Shown: positions 52,319-64,000 of the stretch, in pieces
How positions within the stretch are numbered: position 1 is the stretch's first letter
Layout of the letters: every line of letters starts with the position of its first letter
NCBI GenBank assembly: GCA_051531975.1
Contig: JAOPTT010000009.1
Location: 224,001 to 288,000 of the forward strand
Direction: 5' to 3'
Source of the DNA: Spirochaetaceae bacterium
GTDB lineage: Bacteria > Spirochaetota > Spirochaetia > DSM-2461
DNA length: 64,000 nt
Notes under the pieces: model-generated
What the model was told of the DNA's origin: nothing
The model's database searches: none
Seen by the model: only the letters and a program-made list of their open reading frames with translations
Position numbers and translations under genes: made by a program

Positions 52319-53080
52319 ATGGAAGAAATTTTAGATGCAACTAAACATAATGCTATAGAAAGCAGTTGTTTACTTAGTGAAGTATTTAACCAAAATAGTT
52401 CAAATTTAGACTGGCTAGCACTATCTGATATGAGAATTCAGAATAATAGATCTGCAGAGATCTCGTATAAAAACGAAGAGACATTAATTGTAAACCTTGA
52501 CGGGAATGTTCATGTATATGTTGATGGTGTTGACTACTTAGTAAAACATTACGATATGTTATATATCCCAATAGATACACCTTTTTCTGTTGAACAACAT
52601 GGTGAGGAAGAAGCTCATTTATATCTTTACAGAGCAACTGGTGATGTTAAATATGTAACTTACCACGCTGACTATGAAGCTTGTAAAAAAGATGAAGAGA
52701 GAATTAGATACTTAAATAAAAAAGTAGTATATAAAATGTTCGATGTAACTGAAAAAGCTAATAAGTTTATGGTTGGTTATACATTCTACGAATCAAGAAC
52801 TAGAGCTTGGCCTCCACATAACCACACAGACCAAGAAGAAGTTTACAGCTTTATTGAAGGTAATGGTGCAATGGAAGTTTATGCAGATGACGAAAACAAA
52901 ACTTTTGTTTCTTCTGTATCAGTGGGGGATCATATTACAATTCCTATACTTAACTATCACCCTGTTTTTAGTCACGATGAGCCATTATGTTTTATCTGGT
53001 GTATTTCTGGTGAGAGATACTGGGTTGGAGATAAAAATAAGGACTTCATGACTGCAAAAGTTGATAAGTTAACAACATAA
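52319..53080 (+). CDS. IolB/KduI family bicupin sugar-acid isomerase (candidate sulfoquinovose isomerase)
   Basis: Metal motif 'WPPHNHTDQEEVY...NYHPV', N-terminal cupin 'EETLIV...DMLYIP'. Strong RBS. Confidence 0.75.
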   Translation: MEEILDATKHNAIESSCLLSEVFNQNSSNLDWLALSDMRIQNNRSAEISYKNEETLIVNLDGNVHVYVDGVDYLVKHYDMLYIPIDTPFSVEQHGEEEAHLYLYRATGDVKYVTYHADYEACKKDEERIRYLNKKVVYKMFDVTEKANKFMVGYTFYESRTRAWPPHNHTDQEEVYSFIEGNGAMEVYADDENKTFVSSVSVGDHITIPILNYHPVFSHDEPLCFIWCISGERYWVGDKNKDFMTAKVDKLTT

Positions 53081-53113
53081 ATACAAAACAAATCAGGAGA
53101 AATTGGTGTTAGA

Positions 53114-53138
53114 ACAGCTCCACAAAATATGGAGCTGT
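53114..53138. terminator. Hairpin terminator between convergent genes
   Basis: ACAGCTCCA / TGGAGCTGT 9-bp stem with 7-nt loop. Confidence 0.65.
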
Positions 53139-53148
53139 AAACCGTTAT

Positions 53149-54051
53149 TTAACTCAATACTATATTTAAATTCCATACCTTTTTTTGATATGGTTTTAAG
53201 GTGGATTCTACACCCTGTTTCTCCGATGCCCCTGGGCTATCCATTGGTGCTGTTGCAGGTTCTAGCGCAATATTATACTGATTATTCCAGCCTCCATTGT
53301 TTATCCAAAAACCTAACCAGGGTAGGGATGTTTCAGAAAATATCATCTCTAAAGTTCCTCTTTTGTCCTTTAGACCACAATACCCCTCCTGTAGTGGTTC
53401 CCCAGAGTAAAATTTGAAGCAGGAATTAGCAGGCAGATTAAATGGTTTAAAGAGTGGAACACTTTTTTCTATTACTCCAGATCCGTCTGTATCATGTACC
53501 CGGTTTAAGCTTCCTAATATACCACCATTCATGGCCTGCCTAATGGATTTTAACCCTTTAGGCAGTAGAACCTTAGTATCCTCAAAAAAACTAAATAGAG
53601 GATGGGGAGTCCAAAGTGAAGGTAAAGAAACTGATGACAGATTTTCCACTGAGTAATGAATATGAATTTCATTAGATAATAGCTGAATCTTTCTCTTAAA
53701 AATATAAGGTAGAAGTTCACCTTTAACAGCCATCCCTAGGGAGGTATTATCAGAGTCGATGACTGTCCACTTTTTACTCCATAACTCACCATGATCAGGT
53801 AGTTCAATCGGTTTATTCAGTATGCCAGGGATAATTTCTCTGTTAATTGTTGGAAACATCTCATCAAATCCAAAAGCATCTGTTTTTCCAAAAACACTAG
53901 GGATCGATTCCTTATTATCCTTTGATGAATCTTGATACAACCATTCACATTTTTTAGATTTATTAAATATAGAACTGATTTTACCCCCCCGGGAGGGTAG
54001 AACTTCTACTCTAATTTCATCGTTTTCTAATATAATGATCCCTGTTTTCAT
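53149..54051 (-). CDS. Galactose mutarotase / aldose 1-epimerase-like protein
   Basis: 'LEND...LPSRGGKISSI', 'GFDEMFP', 'PDHGELW', 'WTPHP', 'IALEP'. ATGA overlap with the upstream gene. Confidence 0.7.
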   Translation of the reverse strand: MKTGIIILENDEIRVEVLPSRGGKISSIFNKSKKCEWLYQDSSKDNKESIPSVFGKTDAFGFDEMFPTINREIIPGILNKPIELPDHGELWSKKWTVIDSDNTSLGMAVKGELLPYIFKRKIQLLSNEIHIHYSVENLSSVSLPSLWTPHPLFSFFEDTKVLLPKGLKSIRQAMNGGILGSLNRVHDTDGSGVIEKSVPLFKPFNLPANSCFKFYSGEPLQEGYCGLKDKRGTLEMIFSETSLPWLGFWINNGGWNNQYNIALEPATAPMDSPGASEKQGVESTLKPYQKKVWNLNIVLS

Positions 54052-57000
54052 AAAAGCCCTATCTGGTGACAAATATCTTTTTCAAGTATCTCTTTTTTTA
54101 GTGATTCAAACTCTTTTTGGTTTTCCAGACCTTCATATCCCAGTGCCATAATATATTTTGCCTGTAGATCTCTTCTTAATGTTATATCATCTTCAAATAC
54201 CAGTAATAATGGTAGCGATGTAGCAAAATAATCAATCTCAGCTCTCTCTTTAAGTTGTTTTTCACCATAACTTATCATCTGCCTATAAAGGTTTTCAGCT
54301 TCAATATTATGACCTAATTCAGTCATTGATTTTGCTGTATAATAAGAGTTTTCACTAATATCTTGAACCTCCATAGAGCTAAAATCACCTTTTATTTCAC
54401 TACTTTTTTTAAAAAATATGTCACTTTTATCTTTATCTCCAGCAGCCTTGTATGTAAGACCTAAGTAAAAGAAAATATAACTCTGGTTCTGTAGGGGATG
54501 CCAACTCTCTCCAAGATTTTCTGGGATAGTTAGTATACTGTTAAAGTGGTTAATAGCTTTTTTATAATCCCTGTTTTTTAATGCAACTTTTCCTAAAATA
54601 AGGTGAGAAGTAGCCCATGAACCAACAACCTGTCCTTCGCCACCTTCCCAGGGATGGAACTGTCTTGAATTAAGGATTTTTAGAACTTTGTCACACTCTT
54701 CTGTTAAATTGTATAAGTTGGTTATCTCAATTACCAGGTCATCCCTTTCTGTTATTAAGTTATAGTTTTCCAGGAGAAACTCTTTTCTTAATTGTATAGA
54801 AATGTTCATTTTCTTTTTAAGCTGATCAAGTTCAAAAAGTACCCGTCCGTCATTAGGTGCAAGAGTAAATGCTTTGTTATAATATTTTAATGCTTTCTCT
54901 GGGTTTTCTTCAAAGTTAAAATACGCAATCCCTAAGTTTCTGTATACTACTGAAAGTTTTGATCCCCTAGTTTCAGCCATCTCCCAGCAATTAATAGCGT
55001 CGGATTTTCTTTTTTTATCATAAAGAAGATTCCCAAGATAATATGGAGCATTAAAATCACTGTTATTTGTAGTTATAACCCAGTTTAGTATGTCGTACTC
55101 AAAAGCTGTTGAAGGGAAAAAGTGGGTTGGGTCCTGTTGTGATGCAACCCTAAGATCACTCTCAAACTCTCTATTTAATATATTTTTTACCATAGCCATT
55201 GTGTAATATGGCAGGGGAGATTTGTTCTGTTTAGAAAGTATTAAATAACCTTCAAGTATAAACTCTGCCTCTTTATATAATCCTGCAGAAATATAATCTG
55301 CTGCTGTATCAATATAGTTATTTTCACAACCCCTCATTAATTTTAAGACAATTTCCTGGTGTTCTTTAAGTTTATTAGAATCATTAAGTTTCTCAAAAAT
55401 AAACAGTAATTCGTTATGTGCCATAAGAAATAGTTTGTCTTTTTTAATAATATCAAGGCAGATGTTAAGTGCTTCATTATATTTGCCTATATTTCTTAAA
55501 ACAGCAGCTTTTAGTGTCCATGCCTTAAAATTATCATAATTGTAGTTAATGGACTGGTCCAAATGTTCCAGTGCAGAACCTATATTATTATTTTTTATAT
55601 CCAGAAGTGCAACTTCAAAATAACCTGCAGATCTCCATGCATAGTTCCAGGTGGATTTATAAAATGCGGCATAAGCATCTCTGTTTTTGTTTTGTTTTTT
55701 TAGAGCCAAACCTAAACCGTAAAAAGCTTCACCATCTATAGGGTTTGGGTGTTTTGAAGTTAAGCGCTCTATTGCACTTCTAAAATATGTTTCAGCAAGT
55801 TTATATTCAAATCTACTAAGATGGTATTGTCCCATTGCTGTATTACATCGGATATCTCCAGGATCTCTTCTTAATGCCTCTTTCCAATAATCCTCTGGGT
55901 ATCTGGTTGGGTGACGATACTGGTTAAGATGCTCTCCAGCAAGGTAGAGATCTTCTGTACTTTCAAGATCTTTAGGTTCCGGTGTCTCTTTAGCTGCCTC
56001 GGGAAGTTCTTCAATACCTTTATTATTATTAATTGTATATTCTATAAGCTTTTTCCCATCAAAAGAGATTAGTTTTATTGAAAGACCTTCAGGATCAGAG
56101 TTAAATGGTATCTCTGATGTGAACGGTTTTCCAGGTTCTAATTCAGCTTTAAACGAGTCTAACTTCTCCCCTTTATAAGAGATAATAATTTGGGCATTGT
56201 GTAGTTGGGATGTGCAACAAACTCCGGTTTTAACTGTTCCATTTTCATAACTAAGATGAACTGCGCCAAATAGATTTGCCTGGTGTGCTATACCAATACC
56301 CTGTATAGGAAACCATGTTTGTGTAAATGTTTTAGTCTCTCCTGGCATTAGGTAGGTAAAATCCGGTTGATTATTGGTATAGACCCCTGCCATTAGTTCC
56401 ACATATGGACCATTATCATCAGTTAAGTTTTTATCCCAGTTCCAACCAAACTCAGAATTACCCCATGTCCACTGTTTTTTACCAGGTGAAATATGTCTAT
56501 TTGCAACATGAACAAATCCACCTTCTTGCTTAAAGTCATAACCTCCAAAAAACTCACCTTCGGTCTCTACAACCATGTAGCTTGTTGGTACTGGTATGTT
56601 TTTATATCTAGAAATGTCTGTCCCAGGGGCATAATCAATTCCATAATAAATATCTTTCGCCAAAGGGAATTCACTCATTGCCCGGGCAGCATGGTCAGCA
56701 ACATAGTTAACATCAGGGGGGAAAAATGACTGATATTCATCGTGTACCTCGGCTGCTACATTTGCCCACCAGAGGAAAGTTTTAATATCCTCAGTTCTGT
56801 TATATAGACGTACTTTTGCCTGCAGTACTGAACTATCAGGTTTAAGGGATAGACCTATCATCCCCTTCATTCTTTCCATAGGATCATGGTCGCTTAACCA
56901 GACAGTTTTTGTCCCATCACTCTCGATTTCAAATGTATATTCAACAGGCATATATGTACCGGGTCTATGATGTTGGGGCCAGTTGAATTCTACTCCACCT

Positions 57001-57386
57001 GAGAGCCATGGACCAGCTAGACCAACAAGTGCTGGTTTTATTACGTCATTCCTGTAAAAGAAATCGTAGTTATTGTTTGTTTTATCCTGACCGATTTGAA
57101 TCCGGCCTCCAAGCTCTGGTAGTATTATAAAACGTACATAGTCATTTTCGAGAAATATTCCGTCATACTCTTTATCTATTTTGTCGTCGGATACTTTATC
57201 AATATATGGGATAGGATAGACTTTTCCACAACTTCCCTGATATACCCTTTTTTCAAAGAACATAGGATTATGTTCAGCTTCTCCGACCTCGTATGTTGGT
57301 ATAGAAATTTTGCTATTCCACAATTTTACCGATTCATTTTTTTGCTCTGCCGGTACATTAAAAATATATGGTGATTTAGTTTCCAT
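54048..57386 (-). CDS. DUF5107 domain plus TPR protein (YphG-like)
   Basis: 'RVYQGSCGKVYP', 'IKPALVGLAGPWLSGGVEFNWPQHHRP', 'PGKKQWTWG', 'ELMAGVYT', TPR region, 'FHPWEGGEG'. Confidence 0.85.
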   Translation of the reverse strand: METKSPYIFNVPAEQKNESVKLWNSKISIPTYEVGEAEHNPMFFEKRVYQGSCGKVYPIPYIDKVSDDKIDKEYDGIFLENDYVRFIILPELGGRIQIGQDKTNNNYDFFYRNDVIKPALVGLAGPWLSGGVEFNWPQHHRPGTYMPVEYTFEIESDGTKTVWLSDHDPMERMKGMIGLSLKPDSSVLQAKVRLYNRTEDIKTFLWWANVAAEVHDEYQSFFPPDVNYVADHAARAMSEFPLAKDIYYGIDYAPGTDISRYKNIPVPTSYMVVETEGEFFGGYDFKQEGGFVHVANRHISPGKKQWTWGNSEFGWNWDKNLTDDNGPYVELMAGVYTNNQPDFTYLMPGETKTFTQTWFPIQGIGIAHQANLFGAVHLSYENGTVKTGVCCTSQLHNAQIIISYKGEKLDSFKAELEPGKPFTSEIPFNSDPEGLSIKLISFDGKKLIEYTINNNKGIEELPEAAKETPEPKDLESTEDLYLAGEHLNQYRHPTRYPEDYWKEALRRDPGDIRCNTAMGQYHLSRFEYKLAETYFRSAIERLTSKHPNPIDGEAFYGLGLALKKQNKNRDAYAAFYKSTWNYAWRSAGYFEVALLDIKNNNIGSALEHLDQSINYNYDNFKAWTLKAAVLRNIGKYNEALNICLDIIKKDKLFLMAHNELLFIFEKLNDSNKLKEHQEIVLKLMRGCENNYIDTAADYISAGLYKEAEFILEGYLILSKQNKSPLPYYTMAMVKNILNREFESDLRVASQQDPTHFFPSTAFEYDILNWVITTNNSDFNAPYYLGNLLYDKKRKSDAINCWEMAETRGSKLSVVYRNLGIAYFNFEENPEKALKYYNKAFTLAPNDGRVLFELDQLKKKMNISIQLRKEFLLENYNLITERDDLVIEITNLYNLTEECDKVLKILNSRQFHPWEGGEGQVVGSWATSHLILGKVALKNRDYKKAINHFNSILTIPENLGESWHPLQNQSYIFFYLGLTYKAAGDKDKSDIFFKKSSEIKGDFSSMEVQDISENSYYTAKSMTELGHNIEAENLYRQMISYGEKQLKERAEIDYFATSLPLLLVFEDDITLRRDLQAKYIMALGYEGLENQKEFESLKKEILEKDICHQIGLL

Positions 57387-57514
57387 TAGTATCCTCCAAA
57401 TAGAACTTTGTCTTCTTCTATATATAGTAGGCCGTATTTCTTAAAAAACAATGGAGGAAATTATCTTAAAACTGGACTATCTTATGAAATTATTATATTT
57501 TTATACTTTATTAT

Positions 57515-58423
57515 ATGCAAAAGATGTCTTATATTATGTTTATGGAGAAATATCAAATAGATGGGTTTTTTAATCAGAGGTTAATTGTAATCCCAAATAA
57601 AATAAAAGAATCTTTACAGTCCGAAGTACTTTATAGAAGGTTATATATTACTGATATAGGATTTTTTCCAAAGGTGGCAACACATAGGAGAGATAGAGAG
57701 AAGGGTGTTTCCCAGCATATTTGTATCTACTGTGTTAAAGGTGAAGGATGGATTAAAACCGTCGAGGGAATAAAAAAAATATCGGAGAAAGAAATCCTGA
57801 TTATCCCCCAAAACACACCTCATAGTTATGGGTCATCACAGGATAATCCATGGAGTATATACTGGTTCCACTTCTCGGGAGAGGACTCTATCCAATATTT
57901 TAAAGATCAGAATCATATAATAATTAAAAAATTACAGGTGAATAATGAACTGAATTTTATCGAAATATTTGACCGAATATACCTGTCCCTTGAGAAGGGG
58001 TATAACAGGGGGAATATGATTATAGTTTCTGGGCTTTTTAGTTATCTATTATCCCTTATTTTTTTCTCAGGAAATAGAGATGAGTATAAACTTGATAAAA
58101 ATGGAGAGATAGTAGATAAAAGTATAGAATATATGCGGAATCATCTGAATAGCCAATTAACATTGAAGCAGATGGCTTCCTATGTTAACTACTCAATACC
58201 ACACTTTTGTGGCATATTTAAGCAAAAAACAGGACATTCTCCAATTCATTATTTTCTACAGTTAAAAGTTCAGAAAGCCTGCCTACTATTGGATACTACT
58301 CTGGATAATATATCAGAAATAAGTCGTACTCTAGGATTTGAAGATCCCTACTACTTCTCAAGAGTATTCAGTAAAATAATGGGTAATTCACCAAGAACTT
58401 ATAGAAAAATAAAGAAGGGGTAA
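57515..58423 (+). CDS. AraC family transcriptional regulator
   Basis: N-terminal cupin 'PHSYG...PWSIYWFHF', C-terminal 'GFEDPYYFSRVF...SPRTYR'. True start may be 57536 or 57542. Confidence 0.92.
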   Translation: MQKMSYIMFMEKYQIDGFFNQRLIVIPNKIKESLQSEVLYRRLYITDIGFFPKVATHRRDREKGVSQHICIYCVKGEGWIKTVEGIKKISEKEILIIPQNTPHSYGSSQDNPWSIYWFHFSGEDSIQYFKDQNHIIIKKLQVNNELNFIEIFDRIYLSLEKGYNRGNMIIVSGLFSYLLSLIFFSGNRDEYKLDKNGEIVDKSIEYMRNHLNSQLTLKQMASYVNYSIPHFCGIFKQKTGHSPIHYFLQLKVQKACLLLDTTLDNISEISRTLGFEDPYYFSRVFSKIMGNSPRTYRKIKKG

Positions 58424-58435
58424 ATTCAAAATATA

Positions 58436-60280
58436 TTAGTCTTTATTTTCTAAATCTTTATCTTGAGCAATTGGTAATAGAATCGTAAAAACTGTATATT
58501 TTCCAGGTATACTTTGCACTGAAATATCCCCATTGTAGGATTCAACAATATGTTGACATATAGATAATCCTAAACCAGTATTTGTTTTTGTAACCTTAGT
58601 ACTATAAAAGGGAAGAAAAATATGATCCTGAATCTCACTTGGAATACCATGGCCATTATCCATAATTTCAATTTTTATATATTGTTCAATTTTATTTACT
58701 GATATTTGGGAAGTCTTTATAGTAATTTCACCACCAATAAGAACAGCTTCTGTTGCATTATACAGAAGGTTTATGAAAAGTTGCTTAAGTTTATTTTCAT
58801 GTCCTTCTAAAAATAGTGACTTACTTTTAAAAGATTTTTTAAGTGTTATTTTTCTTTTTTGAAAGCGGTGCCCTATTAGGGTTGCAACTTCTTCAAGAAG
58901 GGCATTTATATCTAGAGTCATCATAGGTCTAACAGCTACTCTAGAAAAAGACAGAAGGCTATTAATTGTTTCAACTATTCTAGTTAGTTCTGATTGAATC
59001 TTATCTACGCAATCAATAGAATCTTCATTTAGTTTTTCCATTTGAAGCAGGTCTAGGTAGTTTTGAATAATGCTTAAAGGGTTATTTACTTCATGGGCAA
59101 CACCTGCTGCCATCTCAGCAGTTGAAACAAACTTTTCGGCCTGCTGAAGATATTTTTGTGTCTCATAATCGACGGAAATATCTTCTAAGAACAATAACGT
59201 TCCCTGAGCGATATCCTTATCCTCACCAAGAGGGGACACCCGTATTTTTAATAACTTTTTATCTCCGAATTTTAATTTTTGCCACAATTCACTTTTTCGG
59301 TTTTTAATAGCGGCCAGAATATCATCACTTTTCTCAAGAGATAGTTTTTTAATATAATCAATTAATAGAGTATCTTTTATCTCTTCAGGTTTACATTCAA
59401 GAATTCTAGACGCAGCTAAATTAATATCTTGAATCTCATTTGTAGGTGAAATTATCATGAGTCCCTGGGGTATGTCGTTTATAATCCTTTTATCATACCT
59501 AGATATAAGCAGTGCTTTATTATTAACAGGAGTTTTTTCATAACCTTTATCTACAGCAAAGTTAAATGCAAGATTCATAAGTCTGGTTCTATTCACGAGA
59601 TTAACATCTTCTGTTCCTCGGCGGTGACCATTATGCATTATTGTAACTCTATCGGCTATTTGGAAAATCTCATCAATATTTGATGTTACATATATAATTC
59701 CCATTTTCTTATTACGACACATCCTTAAAAGTCTGTAAATATGTTCCTGCTGTTCTGGAGTTGTTCGTTGGGATATCTCGTCTAGAATAAGTATATCATC
59801 ACCACGGCCTAAAACCCGCATAAATGAGAGAACCTGTCTTCTTGAGAATGTAAGATCTGAAACCTTTGTTAGTGGATCTTCATCAAAACCATACTTTATA
59901 AAAAGTTCCTTGCACTCCTTTAAAAGCGCTCTTTTTTTAGTAGGTAACATAATGCCTGGGAAGCGCCCTATATATATGTTATCTAAAAGGGTTCCTGTAG
60001 TAATCACCTCATCATTTTGATATAACATCCCGATTCCATACTGGTGTGATAAAGAGGGAGTTAAACCTGTAACTATTTCCCCTTTTATTTTTATAACTCC
60101 ATCCTGGGCTGTATTATATCCACTTAAAAGTTTTACCAAGGATGATTTTCCTGAACCGTGATCACCTATTATAGCGTGAATTTCTCCAGGGTATAGATCA
60201 AAATCAATACCTTTAAGGGCGGTGAGGTTTCCATAAGAGTAATGAATGTTTCGCATTTTTACTAATGGATCTTTGTTCAT
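58436..60280 (-). CDS. Fusion protein: sugar-ABC-type ATPase domain + PAS + histidine kinase
   Basis: 'ALKGIDFDLYPGEIHAIIGDHGSGKSS', 'ILILDE', 'EIFQIADRVTIM', then PAS, 'AHEVNNPL', 'NLLYNA', 'DNGHGI', 'TGLGLSIC'. No TM helix. Confidence 0.88.
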   Translation of the reverse strand: MNKDPLVKMRNIHYSYGNLTALKGIDFDLYPGEIHAIIGDHGSGKSSLVKLLSGYNTAQDGVIKIKGEIVTGLTPSLSHQYGIGMLYQNDEVITTGTLLDNIYIGRFPGIMLPTKKRALLKECKELFIKYGFDEDPLTKVSDLTFSRRQVLSFMRVLGRGDDILILDEISQRTTPEQQEHIYRLLRMCRNKKMGIIYVTSNIDEIFQIADRVTIMHNGHRRGTEDVNLVNRTRLMNLAFNFAVDKGYEKTPVNNKALLISRYDKRIINDIPQGLMIISPTNEIQDINLAASRILECKPEEIKDTLLIDYIKKLSLEKSDDILAAIKNRKSELWQKLKFGDKKLLKIRVSPLGEDKDIAQGTLLFLEDISVDYETQKYLQQAEKFVSTAEMAAGVAHEVNNPLSIIQNYLDLLQMEKLNEDSIDCVDKIQSELTRIVETINSLLSFSRVAVRPMMTLDINALLEEVATLIGHRFQKRKITLKKSFKSKSLFLEGHENKLKQLFINLLYNATEAVLIGGEITIKTSQISVNKIEQYIKIEIMDNGHGIPSEIQDHIFLPFYSTKVTKTNTGLGLSICQHIVESYNGDISVQSIPGKYTVFTILLPIAQDKDLENKD

Positions 60281-61608
60281 ACTTCTATGCCAAGCTTTTT
60301 CATTTTGTTATAAAGTGTTCTTCTTGTTATTCCTAAAAAATCTGCAGTTTTACCTCGACTGTTATTTGTTTTATCCAGAGTATCAAGGATAATCTCTCTG
60401 GTTATATTATCCGAGACATTCCTAAGAGGTAACACCTTTTCTTTTGGTGAGTATATTTTGTACTGTTCAGGAATAACATCCATTCCAAGTGTATCTTCAT
60501 CACAGAAAATGACCATTCGTTCCACTGTATTTCTGAGTTCTCTAATGTTTCCTGGCCAGTCGTGCTGAAGAAAAAGCAGATCAACTTCACTAGTAAATCC
60601 ATCTATATTTTTCCCATATTTTATACTGAATTCTTTTACAAATGCCCGGGAGAGTGAGAGTATATCTTCTAACCTCTGTTTTAAAGAGGGTAGCTCTATC
60701 TGGATAACAGAGAGTCGATAATATAGATCCTCTCGAAAAGTTCCACCTGTAATACGTTCCTTAAGGTCCCTATTTGTTGCAGCAACAATACGGACATCCA
60801 TTTTTCTAGTTTTATGAGAACCAAGACGTTCATACTCTTTTTCTTGAATAACTCTTAGCAGTTTTGCCTGGGTTTTGGTACTCATCTCCCCAATTTCATC
60901 AAGAAAAATAGTTCCACCCTCAGCAACTTCAAATTTTCCAGGTCGGGATTCTGAGGCATCAGTGAATGCTCCCTTTTCATATCCAAATAGTTCACTTTCC
61001 AAAAGAGCTTCCGGAATAGCAGCACAATTTAATTTTAAAAAAGGTTTTCCCTCTCGGGAGCTATAGCTATGAATTGCTGAAGCTGCAAGTTCTTTTCCTG
61101 TGCCAGATTCTCCTGTTATCAATACTGGAACATCGGTTGGAGCAACCTTTGATATCATTTTAATTTTTTTTCTCATTATTGGATTCGCCGATATCATACA
61201 TTTTGTTGCATTTGATTCAGGAGAATAAATATCACTGTTTGATTCATCATCAGAAAGCAGAGGTTCAATCTCTTTAAGCAGATTGGCAAACCTAACTGGT
61301 TTTTCAAAGAAGTTAATTGCTCCATAACGCATGGCCTGAACTACATTCTCTACTGATGCATAACCAGATACCATTAATATAGGGAGTTTACTATAAACTT
61401 TTCGGATTTGCAGAATAAGATCTATTCCTGATAACTCTGGCATTTTTAAATCAGTGATTAGAAGATCACATGGATTTTCTCTTAACATATGAAGAGCGTG
61501 TTCAGGATTAACAGTGTATACTGGATCATAACCTTTTGCTTTTAATAGTTTAGATAGGCTAATACAGAGTTGTTCTTCATCATCTACAATCAAAATTCTT
61601 TTATTCAT
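60277..61608 (-). CDS. Sigma54-dependent response regulator (NtrC/AtoC family)
   Basis: REC 'LITDLKMP', AAA+ 'GESGTGKE', 'ESELFGYEKGAFTDA', 'FREDLYYRL', 'WPGNIREL', Fis-type HTH. Confidence 0.94.
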   Translation of the reverse strand: MNKRILIVDDEEQLCISLSKLLKAKGYDPVYTVNPEHALHMLRENPCDLLITDLKMPELSGIDLILQIRKVYSKLPILMVSGYASVENVVQAMRYGAINFFEKPVRFANLLKEIEPLLSDDESNSDIYSPESNATKCMISANPIMRKKIKMISKVAPTDVPVLITGESGTGKELAASAIHSYSSREGKPFLKLNCAAIPEALLESELFGYEKGAFTDASESRPGKFEVAEGGTIFLDEIGEMSTKTQAKLLRVIQEKEYERLGSHKTRKMDVRIVAATNRDLKERITGGTFREDLYYRLSVIQIELPSLKQRLEDILSLSRAFVKEFSIKYGKNIDGFTSEVDLLFLQHDWPGNIRELRNTVERMVIFCDEDTLGMDVIPEQYKIYSPKEKVLPLRNVSDNITREIILDTLDKTNNSRGKTADFLGITRRTLYNKMKKLGIEV

Positions 61609-61678
61609 ACTAAGGAATGATAATTGACAAAAGTTAAATTGACAAGGACTTCGTTCGAATAGACAATTTGGATATAAT

Positions 61679-61728
61679 TGGGAAAAAAGATTCTCAAATA
61701 ATATCGGAATGAGAAACGTTATTTCCTA
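61679..61728. promoter_or_regulatory. Putative upstream activator sequences for the sigma54 activator
   Basis: TGGGAA-N6-TTCTCA (61679-61696) and TGAGAA-N7-TTCCTA (61710-61728), about 100-150 bp upstream of the -24 box. Confidence 0.5.
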
Positions 61729-61824
61729 TTAATTCAATAATATGATTTATATTATTTTGTTTGTAAATAGGATATATCTATATATAGTAAGCATTTACCA
61801 GTTTTTGGTAATTGATTAAATGTT

Positions 61825-61841
61825 TTGGCATGAATTATGCA
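61825..61841 (+). promoter_or_regulatory. Sigma54 (-24/-12) promoter
   Basis: TTGGCATGAATTATGCA with GG at 61827-61828 and GC at 61839-61840 (GG-N10-GC), upstream of araF. Confidence 0.8.
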
Positions 61842-61875
61842 GTGTTAAGAGTATACAGAAAAAGAGGAGAACATT

Positions 61876-62874
61876 GTGAAGAAAAACGTAATTTTAACTA
61901 TCTGTCTGATTTTAATGACAGGTTCATTATTTGCCAACGGGGTAAAGGAAGCTAAAAGCGAGACTAAAGAGATTAAAATAGGATTTCTTGTAAAAATGCC
62001 TGAGGAAGGATGGTTTCAACAAGAGTGGAAGTTTGCCCAGGAAGCAGGAGCAGATTACGGATTTAAAGTAATTGAGATCGGAACTCCTGATGGAGAGAAA
62101 GTTCTATCAGCTATAGATAATCTTGCAGCGCAAGGTGCACAAGGTTTTATAATTTGTACACCAGATGTAAAGCTTGGATCTGCAATATTAGCCAAAGCTA
62201 ATGCAAATGACTTAAAGCTATTTACAGTTGATGATCGTCTAGTTGGAGCTGATGGAACACCTATTCAAGAGATCCCTCATATGGGTATATCTGCATACGA
62301 AATTGGTAAAGAAGTAGGTAAAACACTGGCCTCCCAGATGAAAGAGAGAGGATGGAAACAGGAAGAAACAGGTTTTATGAGAATAAGTTTTAATGAACTT
62401 CCTACAGCAGTAGATAGAATTACAGGTGCTACAGATGCATTAGTTGAAATGGGTTATGATAAGAATTTTATATTTGATTCCCCACAGAAAACCACAGATA
62501 CAGAGGGTGCTTTTAATGCGGCAAATATTACAATTACAAAAAATCCTAATATTAAACACTGGCTTATTACAGGACTTAATGATGAAGCTTCAGCTGGTGG
62601 AACAAGAGCTCTAGAAGGTAATGGTTTTGCTGTAGAAGATATCTGTGCAGTAGGAATTGGTGGAAGTGGTGTAGCTATTGCTGAATTTGAAAAAGAAAAT
62701 CTTACAGGTTTCTATTCTACAGCACTGCTTTCTCCTAGAAGACATGGTTATGAAACTGCAGAATTGGTATACAAATGGATTACCACTGGTGTTAAACCTC
62801 CAGCAACTACATGGACTAGTGCTGCTATGATGAACCGTTCAAACTATATTGCTGTACAAAAAGAAAACAGCTAA
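61876..62874 (+). CDS. araF: L-arabinose ABC transporter substrate-binding protein
   Basis: 'KIGFLVKMPEEGWFQQEWKFA', 'DGEKVLSAIDNL', 'ICTPDVKLG', 'VDDR', 'ELPTAVDR', 'HGYET' closely follow AraF. Confidence 0.85.
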   Translation: MKKNVILTICLILMTGSLFANGVKEAKSETKEIKIGFLVKMPEEGWFQQEWKFAQEAGADYGFKVIEIGTPDGEKVLSAIDNLAAQGAQGFIICTPDVKLGSAILAKANANDLKLFTVDDRLVGADGTPIQEIPHMGISAYEIGKEVGKTLASQMKERGWKQEETGFMRISFNELPTAVDRITGATDALVEMGYDKNFIFDSPQKTTDTEGAFNAANITITKNPNIKHWLITGLNDEASAGGTRALEGNGFAVEDICAVGIGGSGVAIAEFEKENLTGFYSTALLSPRRHGYETAELVYKWITTGVKPPATTWTSAAMMNRSNYIAVQKENS

Positions 62875-62898
62875 TACAGACATTATTTAAACAATTAC

Positions 62899-62931
62899 AA
62901 TAACAGGAAGATTATATTTCTTCCTGTTATT
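62899..62931 (+). terminator. Intergenic hairpin after araF
   Basis: AATAACAGGAAGA / TCTTCCTGTTATT 13-bp perfect stem with 7-nt loop. Confidence 0.6.
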
Positions 62932-62958
62932 TATCCTAAATTAAATTGAGAGTTTGAT

Positions 62959-64000
62959 ATGATACCTTATTTACAATTTCGATCAGTTACAAAAAAATAT
63001 CCTGGAGTGGTTGCTTTGAACAACGTTTCATTTGATGTGCAACGTGGTGAAGTTCATGGATTAATCGGAGAGAATGGGGCCGGAAAATCGACCCTACTTA
63101 AAACCCTAAGTGGAGCACATAAACCAACATCAGGAGAAGTTATTCTTAATGGCGTTGTGCAAGACTTTACAAATACAAAGGATGCTTTAAAAGCCGGTGT
63201 TTCAATAATTTACCAGGAATTACATCTTGTTCCGGAAATGACAGTAGCAGAAAACCTTCTTTTAGGTCATTTCCCAAAAAAGATATCAGGTTTTATAGAT
63301 TTTAAATCTATGAGATCAATAGCCCGTTCCGAGCTTAAGTATATACTGGAAGATATAGACGTTAATAAAAAAATTAAAGAATTATCAATTGGACAAAGAC
63401 AAATGATAGAAATAGCAAAGGCGCTTTTACATAATGCGGATATTATAGCTTTTGATGAACCTACAAGTTCACTATCTGAAAGGGAAACAACTCGTCTTTT
63501 TGAAATTATTGATAATCTAAGAAAAGAAGGAAAATCTATTTTATATGTTTCCCATAGAATGGAAGAGATATTTAAGATATGTGATTCTGTAACTGTTTTC
63601 CGTGATGGTCAGAAAATAGAAACATTTACTGACATGAATAAAATTGATAATGATATTCTTGTTAACCGTATGGTTGGTCGGGATATAAAAGATGTATATA
63701 GTTACAAACCAAGAAAAATTGGTGAGACTTATCTTAAGGTTGAAGGTGTAAAGGGTTTTGGTTTAGAAGAGCCTGCTACTTTCGAACTGAAGAGAGGGGA
63801 AATTTTAGGTTTTTTTGGTTTAGTTGGCGCTGGACGTACAGAACTAATGAAGTTAATATATGGCGCTGAAAAATCTGATAATGGAAGTTTAGTTTTAGAC
63901 GGTAATAAGATTAAAATAAATTGTCCAAAGGATTCAATTGATAATGGTATATTTTTCTGCCCTGAAGATAGAAAGGATGAAGGAATAATACCAATAAGAA
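62959..64000 (+). CDS. araG: L-arabinose ABC transporter ATP-binding protein, 3' partial (absent from the ORF track)
   Basis: MIPYLQFRSVTKKYPGVVAL...GENGAGKST...YQELHLVPEMTVAEN...AFDEPTSSLS...YVSHRMEE...CPEDRK, open to the window end. Confidence 0.88.
   Translation, partial: MIPYLQFRSVTKKYPGVVALNNVSFDVQRGEVHGLIGENGAGKSTLLKTLSGAHKPTSGEVILNGVVQDFTNTKDALKAGVSIIYQELHLVPEMTVAENLLLGHFPKKISGFIDFKSMRSIARSELKYILEDIDVNKKIKELSIGQRQMIEIAKALLHNADIIAFDEPTSSLSERETTRLFEIIDNLRKEGKSILYVSHRMEEIFKICDSVTVFRDGQKIETFTDMNKIDNDILVNRMVGRDIKDVYSYKPRKIGETYLKVEGVKGFGLEEPATFELKRGEILGFFGLVGAGRTELMKLIYGAEKSDNGSLVLDGNKIKINCPKDSIDNGIFFCPEDRKDEGIIPIR

Follow-up and report, generated by a model that had tools for sequence, protein, structure and literature searches.

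We analyzed a 64,000-nucleotide stretch of DNA from a Spirochaetaceae bacterium (contig JAOPTT010000009.1, positions 224,001 to 288,000), referred to below as the window, in whose last part a gene for a histidine kinase carrying an ATP-binding cassette (ABC) nucleotide-binding domain (NBD) stands beside the operon of a sugar importer. The kinase open reading frame (ORF; 58436..60280, minus strand) encodes 614 aa without interruption, in the order ABC NBD, linker, PAS, HisKA, and HATPase_c. Pfam detects ABC_tran (PF00005) at residues 22 to 169 (69.7 bits; cut-off 25), PAS at residues 264 to 368 (23.1 bits, barely over the cut-off of 22.6), HisKA at residues 389 to 447 (53.5 bits; cut-off 26.9), and HATPase_c at residues 494 to 605 (84.8 bits; cut-off 26.4). 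No transmembrane helix was found in the protein, whose highest 19-residue Kyte-Doolittle mean is 1.18 versus 2.56 in the importer permease AraH, and a cytoplasmic location is predicted. Counting the evidence from homology, predicted fold, and conservation given below, the NBD comprises residues 1 to 238 (59567..60280), the linker residues 240 to 262 (59495..59563), the PAS domain residues 264 to 368 (59177..59491), and the kinase core, with its DHp/HisKA part (residues 369 to 447) and HATPase_c domain (residues 454 to 605), positions 58466..59176, all on the minus strand.

The first ~245 residues of the kinase align with the N-terminal halves of the NCBIfam models for the CUT2 sugar-importer ATPases AlsA, YtfR, LsrA, AraG, MglA, and RbsA, spanning positions 3 to 248 of 510 in AlsA and 4 to 239 of 504 in AraG. 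The kinase has a single NBD, which covers only the first half of each model, and the scores stay far below the equivalog cut-offs (AlsA 149.5 against 772; AraG 135.4 against 689). The C-terminal part aligns with AtoS/NtrB-type kinases, also far under the equivalog cut-offs; AtoS is the best NCBIfam match of the kinase (219.4 against 646), and NtrB reaches 103.7 against 240. Residues H396, E397, N400, and P401 of the phospho-acceptor histidine box are invariant in 39 sequences. By its domains and its histidine box the 614-aa protein is a predicted sensor histidine kinase of the HisKA type.

Immediately upstream of the kinase gene lies the gene for a 443-aa response regulator and sigma54 enhancer-binding protein (60277..61608, minus strand), with Sigma54_activat (245.6 bits), Response_reg (REC, 86.4 bits), and HTH_8 (44.5 bits) domains; its best NCBIfam match is AtoC, at 391.9 far below the equivalog cut-off of 714. 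The junction of the two genes, read directly, is GAA GTA TGA / ATG AAC, an ATGA overlap, and the two are almost certainly translationally coupled. The sigma54-contacting loop of the activator, at residue 213, reads GAFTDA and not GAFTGA. A loop of the GAFTGA type was present in all 31 activators found next to such kinases (see below), with the Asp variant in 10 of them (nine GAFTDA and one GSFTDA); since the variant recurs in this way, it is probably functional in this family.

Divergent from the activator is the importer operon. Its first gene (61876..62874, plus strand) encodes a 332-aa periplasmic sugar-binding protein that resembles AraF; it matched Pfam Peripla_BP_1 (140.4 bits) and reached no NCBIfam equivalog. 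It is followed by araG (62959..64000, plus strand), for a tandem-NBD CUT2 ATPase, which leaves the window; the full gene encodes 503 aa and would end at window position 64470. Beyond the window come the rest of araG, then araH, for a permease of the BPD_transp_2/AraH type (326 to 339 aa), and a methyl-accepting chemotaxis protein (MCP, chemoreceptor) gene. AraG (781.9 bits; cut-off 689) and AraH (471.2 bits; cut-off 378) both exceed their NCBIfam equivalog cut-offs. A sigma54-type −24/−12 element, TGGCATgaattATGCA (61826..61841, plus strand), lies 35 nt before the start of the binding-protein gene and has two mismatches to TGGCAC-N5-TTGC. Two-mismatch matches of this kind number 23 in the window against 17.6 expected, which is about chance, and the weight of TGGCATgaattATGCA therefore comes from its position and from its recurrence in relatives. 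The genome encodes sigma54 itself (rpoN, 174 bits).

Much of this had been anticipated by the original prediction, which was made from the letters of the window and a list of its ORFs. The uninterrupted 614-aa NBD-PAS-kinase ORF lacking a transmembrane helix is borne out by the Pfam domains, the ORF, and the hydropathy profile; the quoted motifs GDHGSGKS, ILILDE, EISQRT, YVTSN, and LTFSR are all in the sequence; and the ATGA overlap joins the kinase to an activator with the REC, Sigma54_activat, and HTH_8 domains of the NtrC type. The divergent transporter genes had been named araF-araG: the second name is secured by AraG and AraH scoring over their cut-offs, and the first is plausible for a protein matched by Peripla_BP_1 only. 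The proposed sigma54 promoter is upheld by the position of TGGCATgaattATGCA, by the recurrence of such elements in 23 of 30 loci described below, and by the presence of rpoN.

To survey the family, the full-length kinase was searched against 5.8 billion proteins; 7999 candidates were scored, 1236 had E ≤ 1e-5, and 120 were examined. Among the matches listed, all 120 relatives combine PF00005, HisKA, and HATPase_c, at 38 to 90% identity, 97 to 99% coverage, and lengths of 583 to 649 aa. The window genome itself holds three NBD-kinase paralogues in all, the two others being full-length at 36% and 30% identity, and each of the three adjoins its own CUT2 operon. Since the listed relatives and the paralogues share the architecture, we rejected an assembly or frameshift artefact as the origin of the fusion. 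Together with the neighborhood survey, which adds 29 further loci to the three paralogues, this answers the concern that the fusion might be unique to one assembly. In a sample of the phylum, a full-length match at E ≤ 1e-50 was present in 14 of 401 genomes (11 of 153 genera); three candidates were scored per genome, so copy numbers from this sample are lower bounds. Full-length members also occur in records labeled KSB3/Moduliflexus and Planctomycetota. In the ESM Atlas the kinase's own cluster has 62 members, and clusters from Actinomycetota combining ABC_tran and HisKA with GAF domains appeared there as leads only (scores below 0.9). Relatives are named in the databases as "ATP-binding cassette domain-containing protein" or "AtoS", routine annotations that the fused architecture corrects.

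A search of shorter proteins with residues 1 to 262 as the query did not turn up this kind of NBD in stand-alone form: the best stand-alone NBDs were generic ABC ATPases at 31 to 34% identity, and matches at 43 to 54% were fragments of 103 to 189 aa, one of them labeled partial. An NBD-only profile was also searched against 1.84 billion representatives. Its top 150 matches were almost all tandem CUT2 ATPases of ~500 aa, which score twice, and only two NBD-kinases (P0439 and P0495) were among them; because the tandem ATPases fill the top 150, this search is uninformative on whether the NBD is joined to other output domains. Matches of odd length in it were fusions of an ATPase with a permease or a binding protein, and one 752-aa protein with ABC_tran only. 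These fusions include four proteins in which a tandem CUT2 ATPase is joined to a BPD_transp_2 permease (P0394, P0433, P0478, and P0499) and one in which it is joined to a periplasmic-binding-protein domain (P0471, 829 aa), a topologically odd arrangement that may be a gene-calling fusion; the five are 828 to 870 aa long.

The gene neighborhood was compared at 32 loci: three from the window genome, 12 from a collection of species-representative genomes, and 17 from the phylum sample. The 12 were kept from 80 candidates because their match ran from query residue 10 or before to ~603, and the 68 loci matching the kinase core only were dropped. Neighboring genes were labeled by phmmer against the window genome's own reference proteins. 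A sigma54 activator gene is adjacent to the kinase gene in 31 of the 32, the exception being L109, where the kinase reaches the contig end. An ABC ATPase and a BPD_transp_2-type permease are encoded within the fetched flanks at 29 of the 32 loci, from Spirochaetota, KSB3/Moduliflexus, and Planctomycetota; the three lacking a full transporter are L107 and two short contigs, L021 (4.5 kb) and L093 (5.4 kb, which shows a permease alone). Each of the transporter clusters seen encodes an ATPase of its own, a single-NBD ATPase at L095 and L109. We therefore rejected the kinase NBD as the sole motor of the pump and regard it as an extra domain rather than the pump's engine. No PhoU-like gene was seen in the examined loci with the reference set used.

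Sigma54 elements were scanned with GG and GC fixed at the 30 loci that show any transporter gene. An element leads into the first visible transporter gene at 23 of them, 17 with at most one mismatch and six with two. Of the 35 matches with at most one mismatch in the 551 kb of double-stranded sequence (1.1 Mb of strand), 19 fall in the short stretches before transporter genes, against ~0.35 expected. In both paralogue loci of the window genome a perfect TGGCAC-N5-TTGC stands 33 to 37 nt before the binding-protein gene; gene starts in this survey are our own ORF calls, and distances are approximate. The kinase-activator pair most likely switches on the adjacent importer operon through the predicted sigma54 promoter.

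Two of the loci differ in organization. L016 contains two complete modules back to back (L016:1290-15946), each with an activator, an NBD-kinase, and a binding protein, ATPase, and permease, the activator genes diverging from one point. L108 (L108:9050-13735) apparently holds a decaying copy, in which the kinase gene has in-frame stops (one TGA and one TAA) and the tandem ATPase is split into parts of 304 aa and 189 aa.

The origin of the NBD was examined in a tree of 32 kinase NBDs (16 of a diverse alignment and 16 picked from the 120 relatives), 29 NBD1s of genuine CUT2 ATPases, and the 29 NBD2s of the same ATPases. In a quick search run without bootstraps, the kinase NBDs formed one clade containing all 32 (Shimodaira–Hasegawa-like approximate likelihood-ratio test [SH-aLRT] 98), and kinase NBDs together with NBD1s split from NBD2s at SH-aLRT 100. 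Because the kinase NBDs form one clade, the domain appears to have been captured once and not repeatedly, and repeated recruitment from each neighboring transporter was rejected on the same ground. By this phylogeny the kinase NBD almost certainly descends from NBD1 of a CUT2 sugar-importer ATPase through one ancient capture. The clade has two subclades, and transporters of the arabinose type pair with both: with one at the window locus and at L014, with the other at L019.

Residues for binding ATP are strictly kept. In the close family of 123 sequences, Walker A residues G39, G44, K45, and S/T46, the Q-loop residue Q88, and Walker B residues D167 and E168, the latter the catalytic Glu, are each present in all 123, and the window protein has the Walker A sequence GDHGSGKS, Q88, and the Walker B sequence ILILDE. 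The aromatic A-loop position is retained as well, as Tyr in the kinases and Phe in the pumps. Other positions have moved: the Pro of the "DEPT" motif is replaced by Ile or Val in 120 of the 123, and the switch position, residue 200, is Ser in 67 (the window protein among them), His in 29, Thr in 12, and Gln in 12. The switch His is nonetheless found in 10 of 16 diverse members, and in 29 of 29 genuine NBD1s. The SGG signature was present in none of the 16 diverse kinase NBDs, and the window protein reads LTFSR. The altered signature, listed among the degenerate features in the original prediction, is no new loss, because genuine CUT2 NBD1s of the same genome likewise depart from LSGGQ (LSIGQ, LTAAE, and YSMAI). 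Loss of the switch His holds for this protein, and as a family trait it does not, given its retention in 29 close and 10 diverse members. As to the expectation that the domain binds ATP and hydrolyzes it poorly, binding is well founded on the invariant Walker and Q-loop residues, and poor hydrolysis is likely at most, with the catalytic Glu conserved in 123 of 123.

The NBD2s of genuine CUT2 ATPases in the same genome show the reverse pattern, with LSGGNQQ present and the switch His and Q-loop Gln absent. Since the defects of NBD1 and NBD2 are complementary, a genuine CUT2 pump has one consensus and one degenerate ATP site; by the same motifs, a dimer of NBD1-like domains would hold two half-degenerate sites. 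Selection on ATP binding by the kinase NBD is strong, and efficient hydrolysis is probably not selected for. The two Planctomycetota members of the diverse set (L020 and L046) have Gln in place of the Walker B Glu and have lost the Q-loop Gln. Replacement of the Walker B Glu by Gln is the classic laboratory change for trapping ATP, and its natural occurrence here fits a putative binding switch rather than a motor. As a separate observation, the fourth Walker A residue (residue 42 in the window protein) is Arg in 101 of the 123 close members (GEHRxGKS) and Gly in the window protein and in 29 of 29 genuine NBD1s.

The AlphaFold2 model of the kinase, built from a 39-sequence alignment, has a mean predicted local distance difference test score (pLDDT) of 78 and a predicted TM-score (pTM) of 0.43, a low value that leaves the relative arrangement of the domains undefined. 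The NBD (residues 1 to 238) is at pLDDT 80 to 93 in most 10-residue blocks and at 70 to 93 across residues 1 to 230; the PAS domain is at ~85, the DHp part (residues 369 to 444) at 53 to 72, weaker in the monomer, and the catalytic domain (residues 454 to 603) at ~84 where ordered. Foldseek matched the NBD to the stand-alone chains of LptB and the MacB ABC domain (TMt 0.78 to 0.85) and to MalK (root-mean-square deviation 2.9 over 223 columns), and the C-terminal part to the PAS-kinases 4gcz, 3a0r, and 4i5s and a WalK model. No solved chain spanning both the NBD and the kinase halves was found by Foldseek, the best query-normalized TM-score being 0.38. Among solved structures, no CUT2 ATPase was found among the sequence matches of the kinase NBD, and AraH had no sequence match at E ≤ 0.001.

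The original prediction proposed that the NBD docks on the permease or AraG and reports substrate-loaded transporter states to the kinase. Our favored reading, to which we assign a probability of about 45%, is likewise that the kinase NBDs dock on the permease dimer and read the conformation of the transporter, by capture and release, with ATP bound and little hydrolyzed. As the kinase is a dimer, it would present two NBD1-like domains, which would compete with AraG for docking at the coupling helices on the cytoplasmic side of the permease dimer. At each of the two composite ATP sites a good Walker A would be paired with a weak signature of the NBD1 type, so that ATP would be bound with slow or no turnover. 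Binding protein loaded with external substrate would alter the conformation of the permease, and this change would be read as an ATP-dependent closing or opening of the NBDs, or as their capture and release; the state of the NBDs would then shift autophosphorylation of the kinase, and the phosphorylated activator would turn on araFGH. Substrate specificity would be outsourced to the binding protein, and therefore a soluble kinase could answer an external sugar and one family could serve the transporters of several sugars.

Three considerations lead us to favor docking: the one specialized property of the captured domain is to bind CUT2 permeases and ATP, the linkage to such importers persists across three phyla, and a soluble kinase would otherwise have no access to an external sugar. 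Conservation of the domain is in part consistent with it. The conservation profiles of the 123 kinase NBDs and the 29 genuine NBD1s correlate with a Spearman coefficient of 0.61, and the landmarks Q88, P94, E100, N101, and G105 are kept; these run from the Q-loop into the helical subdomain, a segment turned toward the membrane subunit in ABC importers. Because the linker between NBD and PAS looks flexible, recruitment or sequestration of the kinase would be likelier than a rigid helical relay. A bolder form of the proposal, quite conceivable if still tentative, is that the two nonhydrolyzing NBDs of the kinase dimer take the position of the pump ATPase on the permease dimer and turn some importers into transmembrane receptors, in which sugar on the binding protein would change the permease, the kinase NBDs would close, and a phosphorelay to sigma54 would follow. 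Soluble kinases would thereby have a general, modular means of sensing external solutes, reused for different sugars and, in further phyla, with regulators of other kinds.

Several results weigh against docking. The Glu that follows the Q-loop Gln, which has a weighted frequency of 96% in genuine NBD1s, is unconstrained in the kinases, as is G113 of the helical subdomain, which argues that the pump-type interface has changed; L188 and the switch His, near-invariant in the pumps, are also free. A patch of conserved residues specific to the kinases (R211, R220, T223, E224, V226, D230, L234, and L237) lies on the C-terminal face of the NBD and at the start of the linker, not facing the permease. 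The linker is predicted to be disordered (pLDDT 32 to 37), so that no rigid path from the NBD to the kinase is visible. Mean pairwise identity is 46% in the NBD, 56 to 60% in the kinase core, 30% in the PAS domain, and 25% in the linker, the lowest segment; among the domains PAS diverges most, with 17 to 19% identity among the three paralogues that serve different transporters. At L107 the neighbors of the kinase pair are a LacI-type regulator and genes of the araB/araD/araA type, and no transporter gene lies less than ~8 kb away. Finally, in 15 pairs of a kinase NBD and a neighboring transporter NBD, similarity over the Q-loop and helical subdomain was compared between cognate and noncognate partners, a test of low power whose premise is debatable: the cognate NBD1 was no more alike than others (mean rank 9.1 of 15, p = 0.57), nor was the cognate NBD2 (mean rank 6.9 of 15, p = 0.23). 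A control with the rest of the domain gave p = 0.16 for NBD1 and p = 0.58 for NBD2.

The divergence of the PAS domain is the pattern expected of a substrate-specific sensor and leaves room for PAS as the real sensor. The PAS domain would then sense a sugar or metabolite in the cytoplasm, the NBD would be an ATP-dependent dimerization or energy switch that makes no contact with the transporter, and the transporter would be a regulated target only. We consider this unlikely, though a serious contender, since the same observations that tell against docking suit it: the PAS domain differs most among the three paralogues with different transporters, the linker appears disordered, the cognate-similarity test was negative, and the L107 kinase has catabolic genes nearby and no transporter. 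The invariant ATP-binding residues would also suit any ATP-dependent switch. It leaves unexplained, however, why a CUT2 NBD1 in particular was captured and why linkage to CUT2-type importers holds at 29 of 32 loci in three phyla. With weak signatures on both sides, ATP-driven self-dimerization of the NBDs should be poor; the catalytic domain already binds ATP, and a second ATP sensor needs a reason; and the inducer would have to enter an uninduced cell by some other route.

The kinase-specific patch on the C-terminal face raises another reading, in which the NBD binds a soluble partner and not the permease, either AraG, by pairing with the signature of its NBD2, or an unknown protein, and reads ATPase activity or abundance. 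The kinase NBD, with its good Walker A and weak signature, is complementary to AraG NBD2, which has a weak Walker A (GAGRT) and the canonical LSGGNQQ. This we hold to be improbable, because the NBDs of AraG are covalently joined and would outcompete a partner in trans, the single-NBD ATPases at L095 and L109 do not have that asymmetry, and a cognate signal was absent with NBD2 too (p = 0.18 to 0.23). It is very improbable that the NBD survives only as a relic of evolution, serving structure or solubility in a kinase that is regulated otherwise: the degenerate signature and the loss of the switch His here and in most close relatives would fit, but none of the 123 sequences, down to 38% identity, departs from the Walker A, Q-loop, and Walker B residues, the domain is kept in three phyla at a mean pairwise identity (46%) above that of PAS, and no NBD-less split form was found in the search among shorter proteins.

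To our knowledge, talk between importers and regulators and the sensing of external solutes by cytoplasmic kinases are established in few cases, namely Pst-PhoU-PhoR, MalK-MalT, and Bce, in all of which the components are separate proteins whose contact surfaces have been hard to define. MalK is an importer NBD that regulates its own regulon according to transport activity; it is a working ATPase that sequesters a separate activator, unfused and with no phosphorelay, unlike the kinase described here. In Firmicutes, the kinase BceS has no ligand-binding domain of its own and uses the ABC transporter BceAB as a flux sensor to control synthesis of that transporter (PMC4513084, PMC3023708). The likeness is a transporter-dependent kinase that regulates the same transporter. 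Bce kinases, however, are intramembrane-sensing membrane proteins separate from the transporter, with two transmembrane helices, their NBD is a protein of its own, the active ATPase BceA, the transporter belongs to the exporter-type resistance pumps, and an OmpR-type regulator is used, whereas here a soluble kinase carries the NBD, the transporter is a binding-protein-dependent sugar importer with its own ATPase, and the output is sigma54. The present system does not belong to the Bce type: the kinase has no transmembrane segment, and the permease is of the BPD_transp_2/AraH type and not of the BceB type, which has a large extracellular loop.

In the PhoR-PhoU-PstSCAB system, the state of the importer is relayed in the cytoplasm through PhoU, located between PstB and the PAS domain of PhoR (PMC13577022, PMC9239213, PMC5775613). 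An ABC importer and a PAS-containing kinase are common to both, the coupling being presumed in our case; PhoR is membrane-anchored and has the separate adaptor PhoU, whereas here the NBD is fused upstream of the PAS domain. CbrA and CrbS fuse an SLC5 solute-symporter domain, which itself transports, to a kinase (PMC7096432, PMC5715377). They share with the present family a transporter part joined to a histidine kinase, but theirs is a whole membrane transporter domain, and here only the soluble ABC motor is fused, the membrane and binding-protein parts being encoded by separate genes. CbrB, like the activator described here, acts with sigma54. Two-component control of a CUT2 sugar importer is also seen in XylFII-LytS, which controls xylFGH by way of a dedicated binding protein that meets a transmembrane kinase at its periplasmic domain (PMC8050422). 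Specificity there comes from a periplasmic binding protein; unlike LytS, the kinase here has no membrane or periplasmic part. AtoS/AtoC and NtrB/NtrC resemble the present pair in the PAS-HisKA-HATPase_c core and the REC-AAA+-HTH_8 partner, but kinases of the AtoS/NtrB type have no NBD. Treponema denticola AtcS is a different, membrane-bound kinase (PMC12070737).

No paper describing a fusion of an ABC NBD to a histidine kinase was found in the full-text literature, with subscription-only papers outside the scope of the search, and NBD-kinases apparently form a large, unstudied family within transporter-coupled two-component sensing. In at least three phyla the family has kept its sigma54 activator and its target operon beside it, and since the module presumed to make the contact is part of the kinase itself, the hypothesis of docking is testable with a single construct. 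Were the NBD to dock on the permease, the family would be a natural case in which an ABC importer serves as receptor and a weakly hydrolyzing, ATP-binding NBD as transducer; were it not to, the family would still add a new input domain, one that binds ATP, to the repertoire of two-component systems.

Further features of the divergent intergenic region are candidate regulatory repeats and elements spanning 61617..61731. They comprise two copies of a direct repeat, AATTGACAA (61622-61645), an inverted repeat with the core TTCTCA-N13-TGAGAA (61691-61715), and a sigma70-like element before the regulator gene, TTGTCA-17-TATCAT (61645-61617, minus strand); such sigma70-like sequences are about as frequent in the region as chance predicts (19 against 16.6). 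In the transporter operon of the second paralogue, an ORF of 407 aa that matches neither Pfam nor NCBIfam (L010:6449-7672, minus strand) lies between the binding-protein and ATPase genes, and a relative of it (121 bits) occupies the same place in another genome (L015:2007-3200, minus strand).

The MCP gene of the window operon encodes 627 aa and directly follows araH on the same strand, just beyond the window (L009:5530-7413; genome C9:289529-291412). MCP genes also lie within a few kilobases of the kinase gene at L019, L023, and L108, and such genes may provide chemotaxis toward the same sugar via the same binding protein. Past the MCP gene (L009:7540-11110) are genes for an enolase-superfamily sugar-acid dehydratase, which is galactonate-dehydratase-like but below the cut-off, a short-chain dehydrogenase, and a fusion of SMP30/gluconolactonase and RraA-like aldolase domains; they look like an oxidative, nonphosphorylative sugar pathway tied to the importer. 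On the other side of the kinase gene, positions 52319-58423 of the window encode an AraC-family regulator (57515-58423, plus strand), a 1112-aa protein with DUF5107 and TPR (54048-57386, minus strand), a DUF4432/aldose-epimerase-like protein (53149-54072, minus strand), and a KduI/IolB-type cupin (52319-53080, plus strand), a second sugar-related cluster with its own regulator.

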